A stretch of 57,849 nt of DNA from Stx2-converting phage Stx2a_WGPS6, in the sequence record AP012539, one strand, 5' to 3'. Below, piece after piece: positions 15,001 through 18,000 of the stretch. The position numbers were made by a program. Each line of letters begins with the position of its first letter. The first letter of the stretch is position 1.

Positions 15001-18000
15001 ACACGCTGTTGCGGTCAACGAGAAACGAAAACGCCGCCTGAAGAAAATTATCCCGCAACTGAAAACGCCAAACGTGGACGGTTTCAGAGCGTATGTCAGG
15101 GCGTTTGTGCATCAGGCCAAGCCGTTTTACTTCGGAGACAACGACACGGGCTGGACGGCAGATTTTGATTACCTGCTGAGGGAAGATTCGTTAACGGGAG
15201 TTCGGGAAGGGAAGTTTGCAGACAGGGGGATTGCATGAGACAGGATATCGAAGCTAGCGTTATCGGTGGCCTGCTGATTGGTGGATTAACTCCAACCGCC
15301 AGTGACGTTCTGGCAACGCTGGAGCCGGAAGCGTTTTCAATTCCGCTCTACCGGAAAGCCTTCGAGGTTATTCGCAAGCAGGCGAGAAACAGAAACCTAA
15401 TCGATGCGCTGATGGTTGCCGAGGCGTGCGGAGAGGAGCATTTCACGTCAATCCTGATGACCAGCAAAAACTGCCCGAGTGCCGCAAACCTGAAGGGATA
15501 TGCCGGAATGGTCGCGGATAACTATCACCGCCGTCTGGTGCTGGAAATCATGGATGAAATGCGTGAACCAATCCAAAGCGGAACCATCGACGCATCGAGT
15601 CAGGCGATGGATGAACTTGTAAAGCGTCTTTCAGCCATCAGAAAGCCCCGTGACGAGGTTAAACCTGTACGGTTAGGGGAAATCATCACTGACTACACTG
15701 ACACGCTTGACAGGCGTCTGAGGAACGGAGAAGAGTCAGATACCCTGAAGACCGGAATCGAAGAGCTTGACGCTATCACTGGAGGGATGAACGCAGAAGA
15801 CCTGGTGATTATCGCCGCTCGTCCTGGTATGGGGAAAACCGAACTGGCGCTGAAGATTGCCGAAGGTGTGGCAAGCCGCGTTATTCCTGGTTCTGACGTC
15901 CGGCGCGGGGTATTGATTTTCTCAATGGAAATGAGCGCATTGCAGATTGCAGAGCGAAGCATTGCCAACGCCGGGAGGATGTCGGTTAGCGTACTGCGAA
16001 ATCCTGCATCGATGGATGACGAGGGCTGGGCACGTGTTGCTAACGGCATGAGTCAGCTTGCAGATTTGGATGTATGGGTAGTCGATGCTTCGCGGTTATC
16101 GGTCGAAGAAATACGCTCAATCGCAGAACGGCATAAGCAGGAAAATCCAAACCTGTCACTCATCATGGCGGATTATCTTGGCCTGATTGAGAAGCCGAAA
16201 GCAGACCGCAACGACCTCGCAATTGCTCACATCTCCGGAAGCCTGAAGGCGATGGCGAAAGACCTGAAAACACCGGTTATCTCCCTGAGTCAGCTTTCGC
16301 GCGATGTTGAGAAGCGACCAAACAAACGCCCGACAAACGCAGATTTGCGTGATTCAGGAAGCATTGAACAGGACGCAGACTCAATCATCATGCTCTATCG
16401 GGAAGCGGTATATGATGAGAACAGTAGCGCCGCGCCATTTGCTGAAATCATCGTGACGAAAAACCGTTTTGGTTCGCTTGGTACAGTTTACCAGCGGTTC
16501 TGTAACGGACACTTTGTTGCATGTGACCAGGATGAAGCCAGACAGATTTGCACAGCATCAAATGCACCTGCTGCGCGTGGCAGACGATATGCACAAGGGG
16601 CTGACGTATGACCATCTACATCACTGAGCTAATAGCAGGGTTATCGTTACTAATGGTTCTTACTGTATATATTATTAAGTATATTCTTTATGCGAATAAA
16701 AAAACTAATTGATCACGATGAGCTTCTGTCAACATTATCATATGACTCAGAAACAGGAATATTTAAATGGCTAAAAACAAATTCAGTAGTAAGAGTAAAA
16801 GGTAGTATTGCTGGAGGTGTTAGTGGTGGTTATATATGCATTAGTATAAATAATGTTTTGTATAAGGCGCATAGACTTGCTTGGTTCTATGTATACAAAA
16901 AATGGCCTCCTAAGTTTATTGATCATGTAAATGGGAACAGACTTGATAATAGGATTTCAAACCTAAGACTGGCAACAGAAGAGCAGAATGCAAGAAACAT
17001 TGTAGGGAATAGATTAAACACATCCGGTGCAATTGGAGTGTCTTGGTATAAGCCAACTGGCAGGTGGAAGTCTTATGTTGGTTATAAAAATAAGACAATA
17101 TCGTTAGGGTATTTCGATAGCAAAGAAGATGCAGCATTCATAGCAGCACTAGCAAGAAAGAAACTATATGGAACTTATGCGAGTAAAGCACTTAATTGCG
17201 AGCATGAGCTTTTATCTCAATTTAATAATGATGAGGATAAACTTGCGGAATATCTTAAGGGAAAATATAAAAGGACTCGAAAGCGTGTTAAAAAAAGATA
17301 AAGGCCTGCTGGTAATCGCAGGCCTTTTTATTTGGGGGAGAGGGAAGTCATGAATCTGGACAAGCAAGATGCACAAACTATTAGCTCATACATAAGGGCA
17401 TCAAGACCAGATTACAAAGGTCCGGTATTCGTAGATTTATCTCGCCTTGAATAGATTTACATGTGGAAAGCAAGGTTACTTACGCATTTTGTTATTCGAA
17501 CGATGACTAGCAACATTACAAAACCAATGTAACTGGAAGAGGTGAATATGAGCACACTCGCAGACCTTATTCATGCCGATATGGCTGAAGATGGAGCAAG
17601 GCGTAATAGGTACTGGAAATCATCGAGCCTTCCAGTTTGTGAAAGATTCAATCACAGGCCAAAACCAAAACGTAGCCGACGAGACAAAGTGTTGAAAAAA
17701 CTCATGCAAATTAACATGGCTGGTTTTGTCAGATTCGTGAGTGAAACGACTAACGGTGATTGATATGGACGAATCAAGAAAGCAGTTTGAGGAATACGTT
17801 GCCAAAAAATTGAGATTACCATTCGAGATGATAACCGAGGCAAGAAATGGTGATAGGTACTTCGCATTTTCAAGCATGGATATTCGTCACTCCTTAAATG
17901 ATTGGTGGGCTTTATGGCAGGCATCGCGAGCAGCTATTGAACTGGATATCGACTGGCCCGAATCGAATGACGACCTTTGGAAAGATGGTGAAGAAGGTGC

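Follow-up and report, generated by a model that had tools for sequence, protein, structure and literature searches.

A homing-endonuclease-type gene cassette probably targeting the lambda-type ninA/tR2 site in a Shiga-toxin-converting lambdoid prophage

The Stx2-converting phage Stx2a_WGPS6 (sequence record AP012539; the whole stretch of 57,849 nucleotides (nt) analysed here is called the window) carries a small gene for an HNH endonuclease in its replication module. Here, a comparison of filled and empty alleles revealed a cassette of 665 bp at 16640-17304 (+), which consists of a 50-nt leader, the HNH-AP2 open reading frame (ORF) and 3 nt, and which separates the two halves of the lambdoid site ninA/tR2. 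The insertion point lies within the 25-codon micro-ORF ninA, at the 5' foot of the stem of the terminator tR2. It is strongly supported that this is a foreign cassette, which was acquired separately at one exact point of ninA/tR2. Judged from sequence comparison, it is probably a mobile gene cassette of lambdoid phages of the homing-endonuclease type, which targets the lambda-type ninA/tR2, and it is plausible that such a homing endonuclease doubles as a weapon between phages. This reading is favored because the cassette is found at a single site with a conserved target and in many flank contexts that share identical haplotypes. Furthermore, it is favored by a cassette made up of the ORF alone, a linked flanking single nucleotide polymorphism (SNP), the protein family, and purifying selection combined with occasional decay. 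The annotation of the gene, its family and its domain architecture were already known; a description of its putative target or of its nesting in ninA/tR2 was not found in a literature search.

The insertion site is defined by the empty alleles of lambda, phage Nil2, a ren-type prophage and OR844603.1. These read ATGACCATCTACATCACTGAG, then C or T, then TAATAACAGG, and continue directly with CCTGCTGGTAATCGCAGGCCTTTTTATTTGGGGGAGAG. At the same junction (TAATAACAGG/CCTGCTGG) the window, HK022, PA28 and 1717 show the same flanks plus 665 bp. In OR844603.1 both flanks are shared, with a helicase gene that is 96% identical up to 16639, after which the sequence resumes at 17298/17305 and reaches the same downstream small ORF. 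In lambda, the insertion point of the empty site is located at approximately 40,609/40,610 of J02459, and HK022 is filled. The cassette is 665 bp long in 20 of 21 IMG/VR and reference copies. The position of the junction is uncertain by 3 nt (AGG), and an imperfect repeat of 8 nt is found at the ends of the insert (ATAGCAGG at the left end, ATAA-AGG at the right end), where the empty site reads ATAACAGG.

The left half of the target, ATGACCATCTACATCACTGAGCTAATAGCAGG at 16608..16639 (+), represents the first 10.7 codons of ninA and is the same in lambda, Nil2, HK022 and PA28 except for a SNP at 16635. The right half, the displaced 3' part of ninA which ends in LLVIAGLFIWGRGKS and a stop codon, is found at 17305..17353 (+). 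Within it, a core of 38 nt (17305-17342) is identical in all contexts, and the sequences diverge thereafter.

A first-pass annotation of the window had described an AT-rich HNH endonuclease moron, separately acquired, with its own strong terminator, between the helicase gene and the nin region; a homing endonuclease or a nuclease of inter-phage competition had been considered, and the former is now better grounded. Its location and its composition are borne out. The insert has a guanine plus cytosine (GC) content of 0.335 in comparison to 0.522 in the helicase gene and 0.507 in the whole window; this ties for the lowest value among all 665-bp segments of the 57.8 kb, of which 0.035% are as low. 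Along the sequence, GC values of 0.51-0.55 in the helicase gene give way to 0.30-0.38 in the ORF. A separate acquisition follows from the existence of empty alleles with the same flanks in OR844603.1, Nil2 and lambda. The extent, given as 16690-17333, has to be shifted: the AT-rich segment starts 50 nt earlier, at 16640, and ends at 17304 in the foot of the hairpin.

The hairpin at 17300-17327 contains 10 base pairs followed by a T-run and folds with -18 kcal/mol (z = -4.3 in comparison to shuffled sequences). It represents the lambdoid terminator tR2, AAAGGCCTGC-TGGTAATC-GCAGGCCTTT plus T-run, at 17300..17336 (+). Positions 17298-17349 match lambda J02459 40591-40643 with 98% identity, and the same hairpin carries the tR2 annotation in phage Nil2 (AJ413274). 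This sequence occurs in hundreds of phage records and, in complete E. coli genomes, at roughly 2,850-3,030 places, and the gene is absent from nearly all of them. The last bases of the insert, AAAGG, rebuild and lengthen the 5' foot of the tR2 stem (-18 kcal/mol in comparison to -16.3 kcal/mol in the empty allele). The terminator is thus the resident tR2 of the phage, which is regenerated by the insertion. The strong terminator of the first-pass annotation is present as a hairpin with a T-run, yet it does not belong to the gene.

In lambda, tR2 lies inside the translated micro-ORF NinA, 30 bp past the AUG and 16 bp ahead of the stop codon, and termination at tR2 is nearly abolished when a translated ORF ends a few bp upstream (PMC4824070). 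The stop codon of the HNH gene, TAA at 17299-17301, abuts the tR2 stem. Because of this position and of the published result, translation of the HNH gene might mask tR2 in much the same way as translation of ninA would in the empty allele, and termination would then depend on translation.

Two terminator alleles exist at the ninA site, a lambda type and an HK97 type, as seen in the IMG/VR loci L153-L247 and in HK544 (L006, 2309-2407). The lambda type reads AGGCCTGC-TGGTAATC-GCAGGCCT. The HK97 type reads GGGCTA-TTTACACA-GTAGCCC (GGGCTATTTACACAGTAGCCC) and is found in about 87 IMG/VR loci. The lambda type stands 3' of the cassette in all 21 sampled copies with an available right end.

Most related phages lack the gene. 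In the phage collection, 17 records contain the cassette with 98.9-100% identity at the DNA level, and tblastn yielded a sharp separation: 17 phage records reach at least 99%, each of the other 2,325 stays below 60%, and there are no intermediates. Beyond the cassette, the nuclease family is very large, and virulent phages frequently have several members in one genome. Among complete E. coli genomes, the cassette is found in 126 of 5,426 (about 2.3%), at 138 places and always with at least 95% identity. Among the 126 carriers, 109 have an intact left junction and 119 an intact right one; the remaining junctions are consistent with insertion sequence (IS) elements or truncations. For comparison, the 70-nt core of ninA/tR2 (95-100% identity) is present in about 2,000 of the 5,426 genomes. 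Exact-pattern scans of IMG/VR detected 20 filled and at least 120 empty loci. A pattern scan of the junction in IMG/VR found, besides the cassette, only the HK97-type terminator allele and SNP variants, and no other inserted gene. A scan of species-representative genomes, in which a single-protein query reaches only close relatives, detected a close relative only in E. coli.

The closest phage record is phi330 (PV189401, 3809-4554 of locus L151), which is 99.9% identical over 15800-18500. Its HNH ORF is unannotated; a short chimeric ninA ORF and a small ORF in another frame overlapping the 3' end of the HNH gene are annotated instead, which looks like an annotation gap.

All copies of the cassette share approximately 97% identity or more and occupy this one site, with six or more different genes upstream and eight or more modules downstream. 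The upstream gene is a helicase gene of the HK97 gp55 type in the window, phi330, SH2026Stx1 and 1717, a helicase gene of the P22 gp12 type in HK022, and lambda P-ren in PA28. Flanks were clustered from 300 nt on either side of the site, among the IMG/VR matches listed. Filled alleles are present in six of eight upstream and nine of 18 downstream clusters of these matches, and each of these clusters contains empty members, too. At least 11 distinct flank combinations were found among 23 filled copies, and identical 665-bp haplotypes recur across combinations, for example haplotype H2 in U1/D4, U6/D4 and U6/D10 (upstream/downstream cluster).

A single base outside the cassette travels with it. 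At position -5, G16635 (ACA to GCA), G is found in 22 of 22 filled alleles and A in 123 of 123 empty alleles among the matches listed (Fisher p about 1e-26, for samples that are not phylogenetically independent).

The gene itself is an ORF from ATG to TAA at 16690..17301 (+) in the ORF listing of the window, and it encodes 203 amino acids (aa), as annotated before. Its product matches PHROG 99 "HNH endonuclease" with an E value of 3e-71. The Pfam family HNH_3 (PF13392) is matched over the full profile (1-46) by aa 58-102, with an E value of 2.9e-15 and 56.1 bits in comparison to a cut-off of 24.8. This catalytic domain at 16861..16995 (+) contains D78, H79, N87, N91 and N100, and N103 lies just past its C-terminal limit. 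Across 54 homologs with 39-61% identity, D78, H79, N87, N91, R93 and N103 are invariant, and N100 is kept in at least 90%. A phmmer search against the PDB pairs D78, H79, N91 and N100 with D74, H75, N87 and N96 of I-HmuI. These alignments indicate that the catalytic residues are intact and that the nuclease domain is of the HNH or His-Me finger type.

An AlphaFold model of the 203-aa protein (pLDDT 88.6, pTM 0.73) displays an N-terminal beta domain, a beta-beta-alpha core, and an AP2 domain formed by a three-stranded sheet and a helix. The core is predicted to adopt the beta-beta-alpha-metal fold, with strands 76-79 and 92-95 followed by helix 97-101. The model ends with two less confident helices and a very basic tail, KGKYKRTRKRVKKR, which is missing from the homologs. 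Foldseek aligned the N-terminal 106 columns with I-HmuI (1u3e) and the C-terminal domain with the AP2 domain of plant TEM1 (7et5) and the GCC-box domain of AtERF1 (1gcc), both at a root-mean-square deviation of 1.0-1.2 Å, each of the three with a probability of 1.00 and with weak whole-chain E values. This suggests that the N-terminal half of the nuclease is I-HmuI-like. The AP2-type DNA-binding domain, aa 114-161 at 17029..17172 (+), was assigned from a sub-threshold Pfam match and the superposition of the model, and precomputed AP2 matches are present in most homologs. The combination of HNH and AP2 has been described as a homing-endonuclease architecture, and a preference for GC-rich DNA is reported for AP2 domains (PMC10448857, citing Magnani 2004). 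Public records already label the gene "HNH endonuclease", and "homing endonuclease" in PA28.

Nine cassette haplotypes differ by nine synonymous and nine non-synonymous segregating changes, which corresponds to a pN/pS of 0.27 (131 synonymous and 478 non-synonymous sites; binomial p = 0.007). This pattern indicates that the HNH ORF is under purifying selection. The full-length ORF is kept in 22 of 23 sampled copies. Some copies have decayed: the IMG/VR locus 648276659_000002 (L017) carries a +1 frameshift in an A7 run at codons 3-6, and in three E. coli genomes (matches H113, H119 and H120) the gene is annotated as two split coding sequences (CDSs), one with the AP2 part and one with the HNH part, or is 5'-truncated. 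Occasional dead copies are expected in the life cycle of homing endonucleases.

In phage 1717 (FJ188381, 59-2500 of locus L004), ISEc8 is inserted within the 50-nt leader with an 8-bp target duplication, GGTTATCG, corresponding to 16639-16647 of the window, and parts the HNH gene from the helicase gene and from the chimeric ninA ORF. A cassette boundary at 16639/40 suggested by BLAST in 1717 is in reality this insertion in the leader.

A further relative, at 3919-4516 of a contig from Logan SRR10380363 (L152), contains a chimeric HNH gene (P0004). Up to codon 66 this gene agrees with the window at 100% identity, and so do its leader, the left junction and the start of ninA. From the conserved HRLAW motif on, it continues as a different HNH/AP2 paralog of higher GC content, which runs into a RusA gene and has no tR2. 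This structure provides evidence that paralogous nuclease genes have recombined.

The insertion also changes the reading frame into which it fell. The first 11 codons of ninA continue into the insert and form a chimeric micro-ORF of 34 aa, ninA', at 16608..16712 (+), as seen by translation. Its start overlaps the stop codon of the helicase gene (ATGA), and its end overlaps the start of the HNH gene by 23 nt. It is annotated as HK022_56 in AF069308 and as a CDS of 105 nt in phi330; NCBIfam contains no family for the HNH protein and none for ninA'. The lambda-type, the HK97-type and the chimeric NinA all share MTIYITELI, then T or A, then G, followed by a hydrophobic stretch. The tail of ninA' could be functional or a by-product of T-rich DNA. 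Its hydrophobicity was rejected as a sign of function, since T-rich stretches of AT-rich DNA give hydrophobic peptides by chance.

No Shine-Dalgarno sequence was found before the HNH start, where the preceding 20 nt read TATTATTAAGTATATTCTTT. A scan for sigma-70-like promoters on the + strand of 16000-18500 gave no site that passes, and the region as a whole gave fewer matches than shuffled sequence. A sub-threshold sigma-70-like match, TTCTTA-17 nt-TATATT (8/12), is present at 16657-16685 (+); it would start near the HNH ATG and yield a leaderless mRNA, and such matches are expected by chance in AT-rich DNA. The O and helicase genes lie immediately 5' of the HNH gene in the same orientation, and tR2 follows it; the gene is therefore most likely part of the early rightward (pR) transcript and not an autonomous unit. 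From this position and the lambda paradigm, we infer transcription from pR, repression by CI in the lysogen and weak translation by coupling to ninA'.

If the cassette is a homing element, its cycle might proceed as follows. After induction or infection, the gene would be read from pR along with O and the helicase gene and translated at a low level, either by re-initiation of ribosomes that finish ninA' or via the AU-rich leader. The enzyme would then bind the uninterrupted ninA/tR2 of a co-infecting or co-resident lambdoid genome, with the GC-rich tR2 stem as a plausible contact of the AP2 domain, and nick or cut near the insertion point. Recombination functions of the phage or the host would repair the break from the cassette-bearing genome via homologies of 32 nt on the left and at least 38 nt on the right, copying the cassette plus the SNP 5 nt to its left. 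The site of the carrier itself would be immune because it is split by the cassette.

Several observations weigh against homing. The AP2 domain scores 28.7 bits in Pfam, which is under the gathering score of 33.3, and the samples are not phylogenetically independent. Site occupancy in E. coli is low, approximately 4-5%. Within 600 nt of the helicase flank, no cassette-associated allele beyond clonal structure was found except the -5 SNP, and no gradient of co-conversion. Empty alleles are seen with 30 or more flank combinations, which makes ninA/tR2 a general mosaic joint, and the HK97-type terminator allele diverges from the lambda type exactly at CAGG, the same point as the insertion. Furthermore, a literature search found no study of the target of the gene, its nesting in ninA/tR2 or its activity. 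Ordinary recombination in the short conserved flanks could move the flanks around a passive cassette and produce the same pattern.

A second explanation is a passive accessory gene at a mosaic joint, which entered by one illegitimate insertion via the microhomology ATAACAGG/ATAA-AGG and was kept for a benefit to the phage, such as degrading the DNA of the host or of rivals or aiding replication or recombination. Its many contexts would then reflect only the normal shuffling of lambdoid modules in the flanks of 32 nt and 38 nt, without homing driven by the gene itself. The general exchange point, the second terminator allele, the imperfect 8-nt repeat at the insert ends, the low occupancy and the missing co-conversion gradient agree with this, and purifying selection is compatible with both a useful and a selfish gene. 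On the contrary, the cassette contains essentially the ORF alone, genes of the homing-endonuclease type, which are multicopy in virulent phages, dominate its family, and decayed copies exist. Identical haplotypes in different contexts point to recent transfers through just 32 nt of left homology, which would be much easier with a break, and for a role in replication we know of no such function in this HNH family. A passive gene is rather unlikely, and homing by a mobile endonuclease gene remains the preferred explanation.

A more far-reaching proposal can be put forward only tentatively and is likewise on the unlikely side: an active homing endonuclease that has a terminator within a translated micro-ORF (tR2/ninA) as its target and is shaped to repair what it breaks. 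Here, the 3' end of the cassette rebuilds the tR2 stem and its 5' end may provide NinA with a new hydrophobic tail, and the HNH start without a Shine-Dalgarno sequence may receive ribosomes from the helicase gene by coupling via ninA'. Such an enzyme would allow a carrier to cut the early operon of any rival lambdoid phage or co-induced prophage with an intact lambda-type tR2, lambda included. The HK97-type terminator would then be a naturally resistant allele.

It appears quite improbable that the cassette is a spent selfish element, which once homed and now hitch-hikes as a remnant with a nuclease that is inactive, has lost its specificity or is poorly expressed. The missing Shine-Dalgarno sequence and promoter, the frameshifted and split copies in some genomes, ISEc8 in the leader of 1717 and the low occupancy would be in line with decay. 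Nevertheless, the ORF of the window is intact with all catalytic residues, the pN/pS of 0.27 indicates constraint, and full-length ORFs dominate the sampled copies.

The moron proposed by the first-pass annotation did not hold. A moron is an autonomous unit of promoter, gene and terminator, as Juhala and co-workers reportedly described it in 2000; in the strict sense it would be expressed from the repressed prophage and benefit the lysogen, for example by excluding phages. Of the three hallmarks, only the deviant composition, strongly unlike that of the neighbors, was found for the cassette. The strong terminator 3' of the gene is the resident tR2, which is also present in empty alleles, and apart from the sub-threshold match near the ATG no promoter-like site on the + strand was detected. 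Furthermore, the insert lies inside the ninA ORF, on the same strand downstream of O and the helicase gene, and not between transcription units. A strict moron is thus very improbable.

An anti-phage defence system is likewise unsupported, since PADLOC reported none and gave as its sole match a weak "homing endonuclease" (E 3.8e-4). A group I or II intron was rejected, since an Rfam search for ribozymes and structured RNA over 16400-17500 at E <= 1 returned only sub-threshold matches on the terminator hairpin. Just 50 nt and 3 nt of non-coding sequence are available in the insert. The cassette is free-standing, with neither intron nor intein.

Overall, the window is a lambdoid prophage of the Shiga-toxin-converting type. 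It contains an integrase gene (228-1406), a gene for a CI-like repressor (12816-13514, -), a lambda-O-like gene (14417-15238, +) and a DnaB-type replicative helicase gene of the HK97 gp55 type (15235..16611, +; Pfam DnaB_C with E 9.5e-78 plus the DnaB N-terminal domain). NinB (18094-18504) stands 3' of small ORFs of the nin region. Further downstream are the ORF of the Stx A subunit with its RIP domain (23296-24396), an ORF for a NanS-p-like esterase (25487-27478; DUF1737, SASA and DUF6645), TerL (32232-33893) and tail fiber genes. The Stx A ORF as called starts at TTG and encodes 366 aa; the true start is probably located further downstream. A single further stretch, 54971-57085 (GC 0.335-0.36), is as AT-rich as the cassette; it contains a gene for an NleG type-III effector (56136-56801, -; Pfam T3SS_NleG, E 5e-48) and an ORF of 291 aa without a Pfam match (55033-55908), and looks like typical cargo at a prophage end.

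Homing endonucleases are well studied in the virulent phages T4, T5, SPO1 and ICP1 and much less so in temperate lambdoid phages. Here, a putative target is defined to the base in lambda itself and HK022, a classic laboratory phage, is filled, so that homing, marker exclusion and co-conversion are accessible to standard lambda genetics. The cassette varies among Shiga-toxin phages and lies directly beside replication genes that are used to subtype Stx2a phages (PMC4645166). For annotation, the case teaches that a strong terminator after an AT-rich gene is no proof of an autonomous moron.

Among known systems, the HNH proteins of the HK97 gp74 type are short, HNH-only, encoded next to the terminase genes and assist terminase. 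They share with the cassette the HNH superfamily and their occurrence in lambdoid and HK97-like phages. In contrast, the cassette gene lies in the early replication operon, 15 kb from TerL, and its product has extra DNA-binding domains; a helper of terminase was rejected because the gene is in the wrong place.

Structurally, I-HmuI of the Bacillus phage SPO1 (PDB 1U3E) is the best solved-structure match to the N-terminal 106 residues. The Asp-His pair and the Asn residues of the HNH motif are conserved, and both proteins are modular and elongated, with a beta domain at the N-terminus followed by the HNH domain and then, separately, by a DNA-binding module at the C-terminus. However, the two are only marginally similar in sequence (phmmer E 0.23; 20% identity in the structural alignment). 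The gene of I-HmuI sits within a group I intron, whereas the cassette has no ribozyme. Furthermore, the C-terminal module of I-HmuI is a helix-turn-helix, in contrast to AP2 plus basic tail in the cassette protein.

In their organization, the free-standing homing endonuclease genes of T4-like and T5-like phages (Seg, Mob and F-Tfl) are similar to the cassette. They have been characterized genetically and biochemically, usually lie between genes and cut a neighboring gene. Like these, the cassette is small, contains only an ORF, deviates in composition and is present or absent at a fixed position in close relatives; it would likewise be expected to cut the allele without the gene and to be copied in by recombinational repair. 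In contrast to them, it lies within an ORF of 25 codons and the foot of a terminator, and rebuilds both.

In domain order, the cassette protein resembles the products of the HNH-AP2 homing endonuclease genes of phages and cyanobacteria (Magnani et al., 2004, as cited in PMC10448857) and of the "IPA-HNH" genes of the Vibrio phage ICP1, with the same N-terminal HNH and C-terminal AP2 domains. The ICP1 genes lie at boundaries where related phages exchange genetic material (Barth et al., 2023; PMC10448857). The cassette is likewise located at such a boundary, and its chimeric relative was recombined at HRLAW. The canonical HNH_3 profile is matched by the cassette protein and not by the ICP1 genes. 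Finally, the cassette resides in temperate lambdoid phages, and its site is a terminator within a micro-ORF, in contrast to the intergenic gaps between structural or metabolic genes that are occupied in ICP1.

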